A stretch of 38,751 bases of DNA. It comes from a phage. Location of the stretch: the sequence record PZ465525.1; one strand, 5' to 3'. Positions 14,798 to 38,751 of the stretch are shown here, piece after piece. The notes under the pieces are model-generated. The model searched no databases, had not been told where the DNA came from, and saw only the letters and a program-made list of their open reading frames with translations. The translations under genes and the position numbers were made by a program. Every line of letters starts with the position of its first letter. Within the stretch, counting starts at the first letter, position 1.

Positions 14798-16660
14798 ATG
14801 GCTAACGTGATTAAAACTGTGCTGACTTATCCGCTGGATGGCTCGACTACGGACTTCAACATCCCGTTCGAGTATCTGGCCCGTAAGTTTGTCGTGGTGA
14901 CTCTGCTCGGTGTAGACCGCCGAGTCCTGACGTTGCCCACCGATTACCGATTCGCTACCCGCACGGTCATTGCAACCAACAAGGCGTGGGGGCCAGCCGA
15001 TGGTTACACTCAAATCGAAATCCGCCGAGTGACTTCGGCCACTGAGCGACTGGTGGACTTTACGGATGGCTCGATTCTCCGAGCGTATGACCTGAACGTC
15101 GCCCAAATACAGACCATGCACGTTGCTGAGGAGGCCCGTAACATGACCGCCGATACTATCGGTGTCAACAACGATGGTCATTTGGACGCCCGTGGTCGTA
15201 GGATTGTTAACTTGGCGTATGCCACAAGTGACCATGATGCCGTTCCTTTAAAGCAGATTAAAGAGCGTGAATCCTCTGCATGGAATGCCGTAACAAAAGC
15301 TAACGAACATGCTGACCGTTCCAATAGGGAGGCAAACCGTTCTCGTGACGAGGCCAGCCGCGCTCAACGTGAAGCTGACCGCTCAGCTCAACAGGCAGGT
15401 GTCTCTACGCAACAAGCAGTCGAGGCCAAGAAGCAAGCTGACCGTTCCAGCTCCGAGGCTGACCGAGCCAAAGGTTATGCTGACAGTATGACCGCAAGTG
15501 TCGCTGAGGCCAAGAAGCAAGCTGACCGTTCCGGCTCTGAGGCCAATCGTGCCAGTGATGGGGCCAATCGTGCTGCCGGAGAAGTGACTAAAGCTGCTGC
15601 TGAGGTTGCCAAGGCTGCTACACACGTTGGGACCGCTAAGGGACATGCTGATAGGGCTAACATTGAGGCAAACCGCTCCAAAGGTGAGGCTGACCGTGCT
15701 AAGTCTGAGGCCGACAAGTTGAAAAACATGAACGAGTTCGCTGGGGCGATTAAGGAGGTAACACCGAACAGCATTACGTTCAACCGTGGGGTTGTAGCCA
15801 ATAGCGCTGGGTTCCGATCAATGGTGGCCCCCCACCAGACTCCAAACGTTGGTGTTTGGCGGCAGGACAAGTCCGAGCTGAACATGACTGTTGACGAGAG
15901 TGGAAACACTGGATTCGTTGGGGCTGTTGGTACTCCGTGGCTTGGTTACTGGAACACCACTAAGGACACCTACGTTAGCACGACTACGTGGAACTACGAC
16001 AGCGGGGGTCGCCAAATCAAGGGAACTCTTGAGGTAGGGTACGGAAACAACTCGTCTATCCTTACAAGCTCTTTGGGTGAAAGTGATGCTGGCAACTGGA
16101 CATGTTTGACCAACTATAAGTGGTACAATGGGGGTGTCCGGATTGGCTCTGTACGTGGAAGCGGTCAAGATTGCAACGGACTCCTCCGCACAATCGATGG
16201 CTCTATAGGAAAATACATGGACTACTGGCAGAAAGTTGGTGAGAACAAGCATATTTTCTATAACCGCGAAGGTGGGAAAGCTCTTGAGGTACACGCAAAC
16301 GGCGATATGATTATGGAGTGGGGCGGCCTCCTGTCAGACCAAATACGAGCACGCTCACCCAAGCGGTGGACTTGGGTATACCTTGGGGCTGTAGCTGTTT
16401 CCAGTGACTTCGTTCTGAACTTCGGTCGCGATGTACGCGGGCTCCGTGGGTTCTTCGGCTTCCGTGGTGATCGAAGAGAGGTGGTGTATAAGCCGTTCAC
16501 GTTCCCGCCGCTGGACTGCAACTTCCAGATTAACCGAAAGGGGGACTGGCAGGTGTTCCAACTGACAAACGGTGGAACCACACTGATTCGCCGCTACGGA
16601 TGGCATGAGGGCGGGGACAACTACGAGTTCTACGCTGAGACTCCAAACGACAACTACTAA
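14798..16660 (+). CDS. 17: gp17 tail fibre protein (conserved N-terminal adaptor domain, coiled-coil shaft, divergent C-terminal receptor-binding region)
   Basis: 620 aa; N-terminal ~150 aa MANVIKTVLTYPLDGS...FEYLARKFVVVTL...ILRAYDLNVAQIQTMHVAEEAR nearly identical to T7 gp17; the shaft has repeated ADRS-type heptads; the C-terminal half has no resemblance to T7 gp17 (553 aa) as recalled. Confidence 0.93.
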   Translation: MANVIKTVLTYPLDGSTTDFNIPFEYLARKFVVVTLLGVDRRVLTLPTDYRFATRTVIATNKAWGPADGYTQIEIRRVTSATERLVDFTDGSILRAYDLNVAQIQTMHVAEEARNMTADTIGVNNDGHLDARGRRIVNLAYATSDHDAVPLKQIKERESSAWNAVTKANEHADRSNREANRSRDEASRAQREADRSAQQAGVSTQQAVEAKKQADRSSSEADRAKGYADSMTASVAEAKKQADRSGSEANRASDGANRAAGEVTKAAAEVAKAATHVGTAKGHADRANIEANRSKGEADRAKSEADKLKNMNEFAGAIKEVTPNSITFNRGVVANSAGFRSMVAPHQTPNVGVWRQDKSELNMTVDESGNTGFVGAVGTPWLGYWNTTKDTYVSTTTWNYDSGGRQIKGTLEVGYGNNSSILTSSLGESDAGNWTCLTNYKWYNGGVRIGSVRGSGQDCNGLLRTIDGSIGKYMDYWQKVGENKHIFYNREGGKALEVHANGDMIMEWGGLLSDQIRARSPKRWTWVYLGAVAVSSDFVLNFGRDVRGLRGFFGFRGDRREVVYKPFTFPPLDCNFQINRKGDWQVFQLTNGGTTLIRRYGWHEGGDNYEFYAETPNDNY

Positions 16661-16671
16661 AGGACAACCTC

Positions 16672-16687
16672 AGGCCCACGGAAGGGC
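16672..16687 (+). promoter_or_regulatory. Short hairpin downstream of gene 17
   Basis: GGCCC-ACGGAA-GGGCC: perfect 5-bp inverted repeat with a 6-nt loop; possible RNA processing or stability element. Confidence 0.35.
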
Positions 16688-16692
16688 CATCT

Positions 16693-16715
16693 TTATGACT
16701 CACTATAGGAGACAT
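16693..16715 (+). promoter_or_regulatory. Degenerate phage-promoter-like element between genes 17 and 17.5
   Basis: TTTATGACTCACTATAGGAGACA: matches the consensus core but has -12 T for C, one G missing at +1..+3, and a weak AT-rich upstream part. Confidence 0.35.
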
Positions 16716-28899: not shown

Positions 28900-29120
28900 T
28901 GACTACTCTGTATGATACAACTACCAACAACCGCATGGACAAAGGGTCTGCCGTGGTGGAAAACCGGAAGTTCTGGGCGACCATCCAGTCGTCTGAGCAC
29001 TCCTACGATATGCCCATTTACGCTGTGAGCCTTGACGAGGCCACCGAGTTGGCTGAGCGTCAGTACGTTCCGGCTGGCTTTGAGGTAATCCGAGTGCGCC
29101 CTTGCCGCCTTCCGGTTTAA
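28899..29120 (+). CDS. 2: gp2 inhibitor of host RNA polymerase
   Basis: 73 aa from ATG 28899 (TAATG overlap with 1.8); ...[48 protein letters not shown]... matches T7 gp2 (recalled). Confidence 0.88.
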
Positions 29121-33194: not shown

Positions 33195-33195
33195 T

Positions 33196-33234
33196 AGGCT
33201 TAAGGTCGTTCCTTCGGGAGCGGCCTTTGTGACT
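33196..33234 (+). promoter_or_regulatory. RNase III-type processing hairpin (R4.7-like)
   Basis: GGCTTAAGGTCGTTCCTTCGGGAGCGGCCTTTGTGACTG. Confidence 0.7.
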
Positions 33235-33236
33235 GT

Positions 33237-33262
33237 TATTCGGCTCACTTCTATAGATAGGT
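33237..33262 (+). promoter_or_regulatory. Decayed phage-promoter-like remnant (phi4.7 position)
   Basis: TTATTCGGCTCACTTCTATAGATAGG resembles the consensus but has an insertion and substitutions; no gene 4.7 ORF follows. Confidence 0.3.
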
Positions 33263-33299
33263 TGGGGAATGCCATAAGGTATCTTAAAGGAGAACTCTA

Positions 33300-35258
33300 A
33301 TGATTGTCTCAGACATCGAATCAAACGGCCTACTTGAGACCACTACTAAATTCCATTGCGCGGTTATCTATGACTACAGTACAGGAGAATACAGCAAGTA
33401 TCGCCCTGTGGACTTTAATAAATACCTTGACGCATTAGAAGCTGAGGTAGCAAAGGGAGGACTCATAGTAGGACATAACTTCGCTAAATTTGACATCCCT
33501 GCGTTAACCAAGTTGGCTAAGTTGCAATTGAACCGAGAGTTCAACATTCCTCGTGAGAACTGTGTGGATACCCTCGTGCTGTCCAGACTGATTCACTCGA
33601 ACCTCAAGGACACCGATATGGGTCTCCTGCGCTCCGGTAAACTGCCGGGCAAACGCTACGGTTCCCACGCTCTGGAAGCATGGGGCTACCGCTTAGGCGA
33701 AATGAAGGGTGAGTACAAGGACGACTTCAAGGCTGCTCTTGAGGAGCAAGGTGAGGAGTACGTTGAGGGAATGGAGTGGCGCTCATTCAACGAGGACATG
33801 CTGGCCTATAACGTTCAGGACGTTGTGGTCACTAAGGCCCTCCTTGAGAAGCTACTTTCCGACAAGCACTACTTCAAGCCTGAGGTGGACTTCACGGATG
33901 TCTCTGCGGATACCTTCTGGATGGAGGCTATCGAGGCGATTGACGTGGAGCACCGAGCCGCTTGGTTGCTCGCTAAGCAGGAGCGCAACGGCTACCCGTT
34001 CAACACCAAGGCTATCGAAGACCTGTACGTTGAGCTGGCCTCTCGCCGCTCTGAGTTGCTGAAGCGACTGACCGAGACGTTCGGCTCTTGGTATCAGCCT
34101 AAGGGTGGCACCGAAATGTTCCTACACCCACGCACTGGTCAGCCGCTCCCGAAGTATCCGCGAGTGAAGACCCCGAAGGTCGGAGGCATCTTCAAGAAGC
34201 CCAAGAACAAAGCCCAGCGCGAAGGTCGTGAGCCCTGTGAGCTGGACACTCGGGACTTCGTTGCTGGTGCCGTTTACACTCCGGTGGAGCACGTTGTCTT
34301 CAACCCTTCGTCCCGCGACCACATCCAGAAGAAGCTCCAAGAGGCTGGCTGGGTGCCCGAGAAGTTCACCGATAAGGGTGCTCCGGTAGTGGACGACGAG
34401 GTGCTTGAAGGCGTTGTTGTGGACGACCCTGAGAAGCAAGCAGCCATCGACCTCATTAAGGAGTACCTGATGATTCAGAAGCGAATCGGTCAGAGTGCTG
34501 AGGGCGACAAGGCGTGGCTGCGCTACGTTGCGGAGGACGGTAAGATTCATGGTAGCGTTAACCCTAACGGTGCGGTTACTGGTCGTGCCACTCACGCCTT
34601 CCCGAACCTTGCGCAAATCCCAAGTGTTCGGTCTCCGTATGGCGAACAGTGCCGTGCTGCATTCGGGGCTGAACACCATCTTGATTACGTCACTGGGGAA
34701 CCTTGGGTTCAAGCTGGTATCGACGCATCCGGTCTTGAGCTGCGCTGCTTGGCCCACTTCATGGCTCGATTCGACAACGGCGAGTATGCCCATGAGATTC
34801 TGAACGGTGACATTCACACCAAGAACCAGTTGGCTGCCGAGCTGCCGACCCGAGACAACGCCAAGACCTTCATCTACGGTTTCCTCTATGGGGCCGGAGA
34901 CGAGAAGATTGGTCAGATTGTTGGTGCTGGTAAGGAACGCGGTAAGGAACTCAAGAAGAAATTCCTTGAGAATACCCCTGCGATTGCTGCGCTCCGTGAG
35001 TCCATCCAATCGACTCTCGTTGAGAGTTCCCAATGGGTGGCTGGTGAACAGCAAGTCAAGTGGAAGCGCCGTTGGATTAAGGGCATGGATGGCCGTAAGG
35101 TTCACGTCCGTAGCCCACACGCTGCGCTGAACACTGTGCTGCAATCCGCTGGTGCGCTTATCTGCAAGCTGTGGATTATCAAGACCGAGGAAATGCTCAT
35201 TGAGAAGGGCTACAAGCACGGCTGGGATGGAGACTTTGCGTACATGGCATGGGTGCAT
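33300..35258 (+). CDS. 5: gp5 DNA polymerase, exon 1 (codons 1-653)
   Basis: Near-identical to T7 DNA polymerase through ...GWDGDFAYMAWVH, then drops into 8 unrelated codons and a stop (35282); the real coding sequence resumes at 35861. Confidence 0.93.
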
Positions 35259-35860
35259 AAACTATCTCATTGTGCACGTTAAATCTGGTGAACTCGGTGA
35301 AACCCTTCTGGGGGCAATACCGAGCCAAGCCATAGGGAGGATATATGAGAGGCAAGAAGTTAATCCTTGCGACCACAGAGAGTGGTTGTATCATCCCTAC
35401 GTCACACAAACTTAATGCTGATGGTTATTTCCGAAAGAAGACGAACGGTGTCCTAGAGATGTATCACAGGACAGTCTGGAAGGAGCACTACGGAGATATA
35501 CCAGAAGGGTATGAAGTAGACCATAGGTGTAGGAACAGGGCGTGCTGTAACGTAGAGCACCTTCAGTTACTAGAAGGTTCTGAGCATACAGTAAAGACAA
35601 ACAGGGAACGCTACGCTGACCGTAAAGAGTCCGCGAAGGAATACTGGTTGGAGACTGGATGCACAGGAACACACTTAGGTGAGAAGTTTGGTGTAACGTT
35701 CTCTGCAGCTTGTAAGTGGATTAGAGAGTGGAAGGCGTAGAGACTATCCGAAAGGAGTAGGGCCGAGGGTGAGACTCCCTCGTTACCCGAAGCGCCAGAC
35801 AGTCAACTCAAAGACTGATGATATAGTCCGACACTCCTAGTAATAGGAGAATACAGAAAG
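35259..35860 (+). mobile_element. Group I-type self-splicing intron interrupting gene 5 at polymerase motif C, carrying an HNH homing endonuclease ORF
   Basis: 602-nt insertion between the H and DE codons of the conserved VHDE motif; exon 1 ends in T (35258) and the insert ends in G (35860); GTGCAC at 35272-35277 can pair with the exon end GTGCAT to form P1 with a U-G pair at the splice site; downstream helices (GACTAT/ATAGTC, GAGGG/CCCTC, GGAGT/ACTCC) present. Confidence 0.85.
35345..35740 (+). CDS. Intron-encoded HNH homing endonuclease
   Basis: 131-aa ORF with RBS GGGAGG; HNH/zinc motif ...EGYEVDHRCRNRACCNVEHLQLLEGSEHTVKTN... Confidence 0.88.
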   Translation: MRGKKLILATTESGCIIPTSHKLNADGYFRKKTNGVLEMYHRTVWKEHYGDIPEGYEVDHRCRNRACCNVEHLQLLEGSEHTVKTNRERYADRKESAKEYWLETGCTGTHLGEKFGVTFSAACKWIREWKA

Positions 35861-36016
35861 GATGAGATTCAAGTAGGTTGCCGTACCGAAGAGATTGCTC
35901 AGGTAGTCATTGAGACCGCCCAAGAGGCTATGCGCTGGGTAGGCGAGCACTGGAACTTCCGGTGTCTGCTGGATACCGAAGGCAAGATGGGGCCTAACTG
36001 GGCCGTGTGCCACTAA
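35861..36016 (+). CDS. 5: gp5 DNA polymerase, exon 2 (C-terminal 51 codons)
   Basis: In-frame continuation DEIQVGCRTEEIAQVVIETAQEAMRWVGEHWNFRCLLDTEGKMGPNWAVCH*, matching the T7 DNA polymerase C-terminus; joined product is 704 aa, the T7 length. Confidence 0.9.
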   Translation, partial: DEIQVGCRTEEIAQVVIETAQEAMRWVGEHWNFRCLLDTEGKMGPNWAVCH

Positions 36017-36036
36017 TACGACTCACTAAAGGAGAC
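36014..36036 (+). promoter_or_regulatory. Phage RNAP promoter overlapping the gene 5 stop codon (drives 5.5-5.7-5.9-6)
   Basis: TAATACGACTCACTAAAGGAGAC: class II-type variant (CACTAAAGGAG); the TAA stop of gene 5 is its first three bases. Confidence 0.8.
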
Positions 36037-36040
36037 CACT

Positions 36041-36343
36041 ATGGCTATGACCAAACGATACAAAGTAACCTTCGAGATTACCGCGAAGCTGGCCACCAAG
36101 GAGGTGGAGACGTTCACCAATGGTCTTATCGAGACCTCTCGCAAAATCGTTGAAGGTAAACCCGTTAACCCAGAACTTCGTGCTTGCGTAATGGCTGCCC
36201 TTGAGGGAGGCGTTGAGGCCGCTGTTGAGTGCGTCTATCGCCGTGGTGTTCGTGAACTGATTCGCGATGCCTACAACGAAATGTGCAGCGAAGAACGTGC
36301 AGCCACTAAGTTCTCACCAGCAACCGTGGAGGTGTTGAAATGA
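36041..36343 (+). CDS. 5.5: gp5.5 (H-NS-binding protein homologue)
   Basis: 100 aa starting MAMTKRYKVTFEITAK..., ending ...SPATVEVLK, like T7 gp5.5 (99 aa, recalled). Confidence 0.85.
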   Translation: MAMTKRYKVTFEITAKLATKEVETFTNGLIETSRKIVEGKPVNPELRACVMAALEGGVEAAVECVYRRGVRELIRDAYNEMCSEERAATKFSPATVEVLK

Positions 36344-38394: not shown

Positions 38395-38751
38395 TGACCA
38401 AGAAGCGGTTCGTTAGCGTAGAGGCGGTCAGTCGCTTCCACGCGATTATGTGGACTGTGCAGTACCTTGGGGTGCCCACTGGTTTCCGCGACTTCTGGGA
38501 TTACGAAGGATACGTCAATAACATCATGGACGCTGCTGAGTTCGAGGAGGAGTACATCATGGACTCCACTACTGGCAACTTGGTGGCCTACTTCACGTGG
38601 TGTGTCAGTAACGACATTCACCACAAGGGAGACATAATGGACGTGACGAACTTGGTGATTGACCCAGAGTTCGAGTCGCGGGAACTCCATAAGTTCCTGA
38701 GTGGTCGCTTTAAGGAGCTGGCCGAGCTGAATGGTCTACAATGGGTGTCCC
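38394..38751 (+). CDS. 7: Gene 7 host-range/virion protein, N-terminal part (truncated by the window end; continues at 1-174)
   Basis: ATG 38394 overlaps the 6.7 stop (TGATG); MTKKRFVSVEAVSRFHAIMWTVQYLGVPTGF... is in frame with bases 1-174 once the 121-bp end overlap is removed. Confidence 0.8.
   Translation, partial: MTKKRFVSVEAVSRFHAIMWTVQYLGVPTGFRDFWDYEGYVNNIMDAAEFEEEYIMDSTTGNLVAYFTWCVSNDIHHKGDIMDVTNLVIDPEFESRELHKFLSGRFKELAELNGLQWVS
38631..38751. repeat. 121-bp exact duplicate of window positions 1-121 (circular-assembly overlap, not a biological repeat)
   Basis: 38631-38751 (GACATAATGGACGTGACGAACTTGG...ATGGGTGTCCC) is identical to 1-121; it lies inside gene 7. Confidence 0.9.

Follow-up and report, generated by a model that had tools for sequence, protein, structure and literature searches.

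The phage DNA analysed here (38,751 nt, sequence record PZ465525.1, in the following the window; all coordinates are those of the whole window and refer to one strand) carries a T7-type gene 5, coding for DNA polymerase, that is interrupted by 602 nt of extra sequence. The insert (35259-35860) is very probably a mobile group I intron of subgroup IA2, which belongs to the family of the ΦI and W31 introns and was gained by homing from a donor similar to phage 13a. The in silico part of this reading comprises the anatomy of the insert, the structural conservation of its RNA, the restored polymerase frame, homology and a recombination footprint. By analogy with experiments on ΦI, W31 and T3, the copy in the window would be expected to splice itself, to encode an active endonuclease and to regulate the synthesis of the latter at the ribosome-binding site (RBS). 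The element is already known, and the copy in the window is nearly identical to an annotated intron. As a discovery it has little weight: descriptions of the element, of its splicing and of its mobility date from 2004-2009, and GenBank contains annotated copies that are nearly identical. What the window adds is the footprint of a recent copying event into an intronless lineage represented by phage IME15, and homologous introns at the same site of polymerases that are only 28-38% identical (SU7, FH3 and an SP6-like contig).

Interruption of gene 5 and the predicted spliced product

The open reading frame (ORF) of gene 5 starts at 33300. The list of ORFs and the translation confirmed that it is T7-like through AYMAWVH, as the first-pass annotation had stated. 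It reads ...GWDGDFAYMAWVH up to 35258, and continues for seven codons (KLSHCAR) before the UAA stop (Table 1). Eight nonsense codons had been counted previously, the sole error among the earlier statements on the sequence. Deletion of the insert joins 653 and 51 codons, and the resulting polymerase of 704 amino acids could be aligned without gaps with residues 1-704 of T7 DNA polymerase (PDB 6n7w). The product of T7 length that had been foreseen, with a C-terminus resuming 602 nt later at 35861, was thus obtained. The junction lies between His653 and Asp654, that is, between the His and the Asp-Glu codons of the VHDE motif, where the insertion had been placed before. In T7 DNA polymerase two aspartates are catalytic, and Asp654 is one of them. 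The junction peptide of the predicted polymerase is ...AWVHDEIQVGCR, and the junction of the ligated exons in the RNA is predicted to be ...GGGUGCAU/GAUGAGAUU. Comparison by blastn with the intronless IME15 genome defined the boundaries exactly, the extra DNA being located between IME15 positions 15464 and 15465. The last base of the 5' exon is U35258 and the last base of the insert is G35860.

No in-frame ATG, GTG or TTG occurs between the stop codon at 35819 and the beginning of exon 2, and none of the ORFs listed for the window covers exon 2. Since exon 2 has neither a start codon nor a listed ORF of its own, the 51-residue C-terminus can be made only from spliced RNA. The absence of an in-frame start upstream of the Asp-Glu codons supports, at the level of sequence, the earlier claim that production of the polymerase would depend on splicing. 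An early in-frame stop was also present in most of the other intron copies examined, although its position was variable: it is the first intron codon in K1F and lies ten codons into the intron in the SP6-like contig (L007). The readthrough translation of the LNA7 copy contained no early in-frame stop. The stop at 35280-35282 may serve to guard the RNA fold from ribosomes. In the protein collection searched there was no verbatim entry for the endonuclease, the spliced polymerase or the truncated polymerase. Automatic annotation calls a truncated polymerase of 660 amino acids and misses exon 2; a 660-residue product of this kind was called in contigs carrying I-TslI, the endonuclease of the ΦI/W31 introns, and gene 5 of Sal_R1S, SU7 and FH3 is annotated in pieces. 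The proper annotation of gene 5 in the window is join(33300..35258,35861..36016).

Anatomy and conservation of the intron RNA

The first-pass annotation had called the insert a group I intron and had proposed a search with the Rfam covariance models. This search gave a match to RF00028 at 35249-35850 that extended over the full length of the model (positions 1-253) with E = 7.6e-8 and 37.7 bits, though this score is below the curated gathering score (see below). Scanning of the intronless IME15 and T3-like loci with RF00028 gave no match. Homologous introns were gathered from the Teseptimavirus phages 13a, HZP2, LNA7 and Sal_R1S, a metagenome contig, the Kayfunavirus phages K1F and Ro45lw, the SP6-like contig L007 (46.7 kb), and the Gordonclarkvirinae phages SU7 and FH3. 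All of them are located at the homologous H/DE junction. The NS1, NTNC80A and Mak loci, described further below, were left out of the RNA analysis.

Covariation was counted in an alignment of ten intron copies from which the ORF had been deleted. Unguided folding with RNAalifold recovered P1, P3, P4, P5, P7.1, P7.2, P8 and P9, with 16 compensatory pairs. With an explicit model, which also included P6, P7 and P10, 94.6% of the cells were paired and 17 pairs were changed on both sides. When the 3' partners were slid by 1-3 columns, only 34-46% of the cells were paired and 2-5 pairs were doubly changed. Shuffling of the columns gave 5.7 ± 1.8 doubly changed pairs, with no value as high as the observed one in 500 shuffles. 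The SU7 and FH3 sequences were misaligned by MAFFT in P7.2-P8 and the L007 sequence in P6, therefore the pair counts of the explicit model are underestimates for these helices. The misaligned helices were checked by folding each lineage separately, and the same P4-P5, P7.2, P8 and P9 hairpins were obtained from differing sequences. The full-length Rfam match, the core recovered by RNAalifold and the doubly changed pairs together bear out the assignment to the group I introns.

The splice-site features of group I introns that the first-pass annotation had named (U at the exon end, G at the insert end, and a P1 formed by GTGCAC and GTGCAT with a U-G pair) are present. The U-G pair of P1 is invariant in all ten copies, and the neighbouring G-C pair is replaced by A-U in SU7 and FH3. 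In P10, a C-G pair is replaced by U-A in four copies, where a C to U change in the intron at 35266 is accompanied by a synonymous change of the exon codon GAG to GAA. Thus, both P1 and P10 show covariation between exon and guide. In P6, GCC/GGC is changed to GCU/AGU in SU7 and FH3, and the L007 copy has ACUGU/ACAGU. Subgroup IA2 is defined by P7.1 and P7.2 between P7 and the 3' strand of P3, joined by G-U-A (PMC3428280), and the arrangement found in the window places the intron in this subgroup. P2 is absent from the intron of the window and present in that of L007. The ribozyme core differs from that of 13a at four positions and from that of the ΦI-type intron at seven. As judged from the helix coordinates and the pair counts, none of these differences appears to be pair-breaking: they are outside helices, in loops, or change U-G to U-A.

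On the basis of this anatomy the following course of expression can be proposed. The phage RNA polymerase would transcribe through the intron, and ribosomes translating exon 1 would halt at the UAA at 35280-35282. The RNA would fold into P1 and the P3-P9 core, and an external guanosine would attack after U35258. P10 would then align exon 2, the exons would be joined (CAU/GAU) and the terminal G35860 released. Splicing would restore the His653-Asp654-Glu655 active-site motif and the 704-residue polymerase, while the RBS of the 131-residue endonuclease is probably partly hidden in a hairpin.

Table 1. Positions of gene 5, the predicted intron and its elements in the window, and of homologous introns in other phages
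Feature	Position	Strand	Remarks
Gene 5 (DNA polymerase), exon 1	33300-35258	+	653 codons, ending ...AYMAWVH (CAU); aligns with T7 DNA polymerase 1-653
Gene 5, exon 2	35861-36016	+	51 codons, DEIQVGCRTEEIAQ (DEIQVGC)...NWAVCH, 35861-36013; stop 36014-36016
Group I intron, subgroup IA2 (predicted)	35259-35860	+	602 nt, terminal G35860; Rfam RF00028, absence from IME15, covariation
In-frame UAA closing unspliced exon 1	35280-35282	+	directly before P3
P1	35253-35258/35272-35277	+	GUGCAU (exon)/GUGCAC (internal guide); U35258-G35272 splice-site wobble
P10	35264-35270/35862-35868	+	AUCUCAU/AUGAGAU (exon 2); 7 bp
P3	35284-35290/35793-35799	+	UCUGGUG/CGCCAGA; three pairs changed on both sides
P4	35293-35299/35318-35324	+	same hairpin in independent lineage folds; compensatory pairs
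P5	35303-35306/35311-35314	+	part of P4-P5 hairpin 35293-35324
P6	35329-35333/35732-35736	+	GCCAU/AAGGC; 3' strand inside last endonuclease codons
P7	35742-35747/35823-35828	+	GACUAU/AUAGUC; pseudoknot with P3; 100% paired
P7.1	35748-35755	+	CCGAAAGG; IA2 signature, followed by A-GUA linker
P7.2	35760-35788	+	IA2 signature element
P8	35800-35817	+	hairpin kept though sequence differs per lineage
P9	35834-35849	+	three pairs changed on both sides; 100% of cells paired
Terminal G	35860	+	last intron base
HNH homing endonuclease gene, I-TslI allele of 13a type	35345-35740	+	131 amino acids; HNH_3, phrog_6254
Predicted Shine-Dalgarno hairpin	35333-35399	+	GGGAGGA paired with codons about 55 nt downstream
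Imported segment (intron and co-converted exon flanks)	35249-35900 (minimum), 35232-35904 (maximum)	+	17 donor-type sites
Homologous intron, SU7 (L013, MZ342906)	1409-2015
Homologous intron, FH3 (L019, OR886155)	1410-2016
Homologous intron, SP6-like contig (L007)	1088-1732		has P2 hairpin; endonuclease gene frameshifted

The intron-encoded endonuclease and known relatives

The ORF of 131 codons, which had been described earlier as an HNH gene with an RBS of its own, matched Pfam HNH_3 (E = 1.6e-16, 60.1 bits, cut-off 24.8) and the phrog_6254 family 'HNH endonuclease' (2.2e-46), and is preceded by the Shine-Dalgarno sequence GGGAGGA at 35335-35341. A comparison with phage intron endonucleases and with the T3 homologue had been suggested in the first-pass annotation. 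The protein is 99.2% identical to the 'endonuclease' of 13a, from which it differs in one residue, and 86% identical, without gaps, to I-TslI of ΦI (AAV53690.1), which was found among the members of the top homologue cluster. The free-standing HNH homologue located directly after gene 5 in T3, which had been named earlier as a related gene, is 48% identical over residues 6-94. The His, Asn and Cys residues of the HNH (beta-beta-alpha-metal) domain, namely H60, C62, C67, N69, H72, H81 and N86, do not vary among 23 homologues. When the AlphaFold model (mean predicted local distance difference test score, pLDDT, 88.8) was compared with the PDB, the best match was I-HmuI (1u3e), the nickase of the SPO1 polymerase intron; it extends along the entire model but is weak (probability 0.97, E = 3e-3, template modelling (TM) score 0.36). 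Together, the Pfam and PHROG matches, the identity to I-TslI and the structural match corroborate the homing endonuclease assignment. Searching the PDB sequences with the single protein found nothing, and the T-cell-receptor matches obtained with the family profile were rejected as spurious. The C-terminal region of the protein (residues 95-131, 35627-35737) gave weak helix-turn-helix matches at residues 105-130, with helices predicted at 108-115 and 119-130.

The ORF sits in the P6/P6a loop; its last codons (AAG GCG UAG) make up the 3' strand of P6, and its stop codon abuts P7. The Shine-Dalgarno hairpin listed in Table 1 has a minimum free energy of -23 kcal/mol (z = -3.97), and none of 200 shuffled sequences was equally stable. 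L007 is the only lineage without this fold, and in K1F an A-U pair is changed to G-C through a synonymous Cys codon. This suggests that the hairpin may damp translation of the endonuclease. The antisense ORFs 35197-35409, 35412-35672 and 35837-36013 had no Pfam match. No host-type promoter or terminator was detected above chance in 35000-36200, and no phage promoter was found within the intron. A perfect T7-type promoter-like sequence, TAATACGACTCACTAAAGGAGA, is located at 36014-36035, beginning at the gene 5 stop codon and preceding gene 5.5 (Pfam Phage_T7_55); the only other matches with up to three mismatches in the window are at 29118, 30785 and 37804.

The first-pass annotation had mentioned introns in gene 5 of some T7-like phages, and the literature bears this out. 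In ΦI and W31 the DNA polymerase gene is interrupted at site 881 (numbered after E.coli Pol I) by self-splicing IA2 introns whose P6a contains an HNH ORF (PMC3428280). Each is 601 nt long and has an ORF of 131 codons coding for I-TslI (PMC1995217), an intron-encoded homing nicking enzyme (PMC8845596). Endonuclease activity has been reported for ΦI (PMC3984707, PMC8845596), and the finding of 2009 that the free-standing endonuclease and the intron target the same site has been summarised (PMC3984707). The intron of the window shares with these introns the gene, the His/Asp site 881, the IA2 type and the position of the ORF in P6a; it has 602 nt and an ORF of equal length. Its ribozyme core is 94-98% identical to that of the intron encoding the exact I-TslI, and among the differences is an additional G (35310) in the loop of P5. 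In contrast, the endonuclease has diverged from I-TslI (86% identity of amino acids, 81% of DNA), and the backbone of the window is of IME15 type, unlike that of the ΦI and W31 host phages. The ΦI/W31 intron with I-TslI was reportedly described by Bonocora and Shub (2004, J Bacteriol 186:8153); the GenBank records are AY769989 and AY769990.

The T3 homologue (2483-2788 of the T3 locus, L015) differs from the intron-encoded form in being free-standing past an intact gene 5 and not associated with a ribozyme; its 101 residues include no counterpart of the helical C-terminus (about 37 residues). This product of T3 gene 5.3 is reportedly named F-TslI, and F-TslI and I-TslI are reported to cut at identical positions (Bonocora and Shub 2009, Curr Biol 19:223). 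The polymerase introns of SPO1 and SP82 resemble that of the window in being IA2-type introns of a phage family A DNA polymerase gene and in encoding HNH nicking endonucleases, I-HmuI and I-HmuII. They are, however, inserted at site 674 instead of 881 (PMC3428280), and no sequence similarity between the ORF of the window and I-HmuI was detectable by phmmer or with the family profile.

The GenBank records of 13a, K1F and JeanTinguely give gene 5 as a join of two pieces that enclose an endonuclease gene. The segment 35232-35904 was matched by 65 phage records, of which 40 covered 80% or more of the segment. The 13a record (EU734174) has a joined gp5 and an 'endonuclease' one residue away from that of the window. 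The introns of ΦI type, of L005 and of LNA7 shared 92-98% identity with that of the window in the core, against only 78-82% in the ORF, which points to differing histories of core and ORF and thus to possible recombination within the intron.

Homologous introns were also found in distant phages. The polymerases of SU7 and FH3 are 28-29% identical, and that of L007 is 38% identical, to the polymerase of the window. In SU7 and FH3 each exon is annotated as a gene of its own, and the introns of these two phages and of L007 are unannotated; a badly specified literature search found no paper describing the SU7-type intron. In NTNC80A (L014) and Mak (L020) the endonuclease gene is free-standing and has no intron core. 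In NS1 (L018, MN715150.2, 780-1560), exon 1 is frameshifted just before the intron and the intron is followed by non-polymerase sequence. The NS1 record begins inside gene 5, and these oddities are probably an artefact of the assembly or of the start of the record.

Homing footprint and alternative explanations

The window is a circularly permuted assembly of an IME15-type genome: it is about 96% identical to IME15 over most of its length, position 1 of IME15 corresponds to 20284, and the first 121 nt (1-121) are identical to the last 121 nt (38631-38751), giving a unique length of 38,630 bp. The closest relatives of the window, those of the IME15 group, lack the intron: IME15, PZL-Ah1, avDM11-UST, Ebrios and KFSA9 matched the intron-free junction in a single unbroken piece, and no intron-bearing member of the IME15 group was present in the collections searched. 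Sites that distinguish IME15 from 13a were listed one by one beyond position 1300 of the spliced gene. An unbroken run of 17 donor-type sites extends from 35249 to 35900, with IME15-type bases on both sides, and the rest of gene 5 was mostly of IME15 type beyond its first ~300 nt. The junction was also aligned with four phages of the IME15 group, T7, T3 and three intron-bearing phages. Across the run, IME15, Ebrios and avDM11-UST had essentially the same recipient-type bases, and the three intron-bearing phages carried the bases of the window. KFSA9 was more divergent within the run, but it shared the recipient-type bases upstream.

Identity to 13a is 98.5% over 35232-35904 (98.3% for the intron alone), and the adjoining exon sequence does not share this level of identity. 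On the upstream side of the insertion site 27 nt of exon are identical to 13a, and on the downstream side 44 nt; outside this tract, gene 5 of the window is only about 70-90% identical to that of 13a, and the rest of the genome belongs to the IME15 group. The co-converted exon thus amounts to 10-27 nt upstream and 40-44 nt downstream, the ends of the tract being resolved to within 17 nt (35232-35248) and 4 nt (35901-35904), respectively. Within the tract CAC/GACGAAAUC of the recipient lineage is replaced by CAU/GAUGAGAUU. The imported exon bases are exactly what the ribozyme needs, namely the U at the splice site and the exon half of P10. A 13a-type intron with its flanks in an IME15-type gene 5 is the signature of homing with co-conversion, which is expected to leave a short converted tract with the insertion site at its centre (PMC3984707). 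The window is therefore a clean natural example of co-conversion, in which the intron carries along the exon bases that pair with it.

These observations are consistent with the following scheme. In a mixed infection, the endonuclease would cut or nick an intronless gene 5 near the insertion site, and repair would copy the intron and short pieces of flanking exon into the recipient. In this way the IME15-type lineage of the window would have gained its intron from a 13a-like donor. The co-converted tract around the insertion site lends indirect support to cleavage of the intronless allele and to transfer of the intron. It seems likely, with somewhat less confidence than the identity of the element itself, that homing into the IME15 group was natural and recent, and that one family of introns and endonucleases has crossed podophage subfamilies by way of the invariant motif C.

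Several points weigh against the interpretation as a working mobile intron. The Rfam score is lower than the curated gathering score of 50. P7 is invariant in all ten copies, thus its covariation neither supports nor contradicts this helix. The evidence for the RBS hairpin consists of one compensatory change and a z-score, and both of its strands are constrained by other functions. Finally, the support for this particular copy is in silico. With regard to the first point, the gathering score is a cut-off set for practical purposes and does not describe a biological property. The intron with the gene for the exact I-TslI protein likewise fell short of it (44.5 bits), as did eight other copies (31-45 bits), and the introns of SU7 and FH3 reached only 26 bits (E = 0.002). 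A score under the threshold is therefore a property of the intron family, and the low values are consistent with the 400-nt ORF in P6 and the missing P2.

The low score and the computational nature of the evidence would also fit a decayed relic that no longer splices, with gene 5 being a pseudogene or the genome defective, and the frameshifted endonuclease gene of L007 indicates that decay does occur in this intron family. A relic is nevertheless very unlikely: all helices are intact in spite of the few differences in the core, the ORF is full length and almost unchanged relative to 13a, the co-converted flanks provide both the splice-site U and the partner strand of P10, and the ΦI-type intron is below the Rfam threshold as well. 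Moreover, gene 5 is essential in T7-like phages. It was also considered that intronless IME15-like and intron-bearing 13a-like reads from one sample had been joined during assembly, since the window was assembled as a circular contig whose ends overlap by 121 nt and the near-identity to 13a is confined to the intron segment in an otherwise IME15-type sequence. Such a chimera is hardly credible because the stretches shared at the switch points are only 17 nt and 4 nt long, far below the overlap of ~121 nt; two such joins 650 nt apart are improbable, and homing yields just such a short tract around the insertion point (PMC3984707). The chance that gene 5 is truly split into two assembling polypeptides, or contains an intein, appears negligible. 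Split annotations exist, K1F (AM084414) being annotated as gp5, gp5.3 and gp5.4 and SU7 with two 'DNA polymerase' coding sequences, but exon 2 of the window has neither an in-frame start after the stop at 35819 nor a listed ORF. The stop codons of the insert in the polymerase frame rule out an intein, and the conserved, covarying group I fold in the RNA argues against both possibilities. A group I intron acquired by homing thus remains the preferred explanation.

Other regions of the window also deviate from IME15. The tail-fibre region (15250-16696) was unmatched or showed 67% identity to IME15, with flanks of 96%, and is probably the result of a host-range module exchange. The first ~300 nt of gene 5 together with the preceding 50 nt (33195-33600) are 96-97% identical to Aeromonas phage KFSA9 and 63-75% identical to IME15. 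KFSA9 carries an 'endonuclease VII' gene immediately upstream of gene 5, and at this place IME15 holds an unrelated gene 4.7. In the window the KFSA9-type endonuclease VII gene has suffered a clean deletion of 398 nt, joined at 33249, and the last ~50 nt of the gene (...WNAIRYLKGEL, followed by the stop codon) remain. It seems that a second free-standing homing endonuclease gene, of the F-CphI/Endo VII type (PMC6083498), once stood at the opposite end of gene 5 and that this region is what is left of it.

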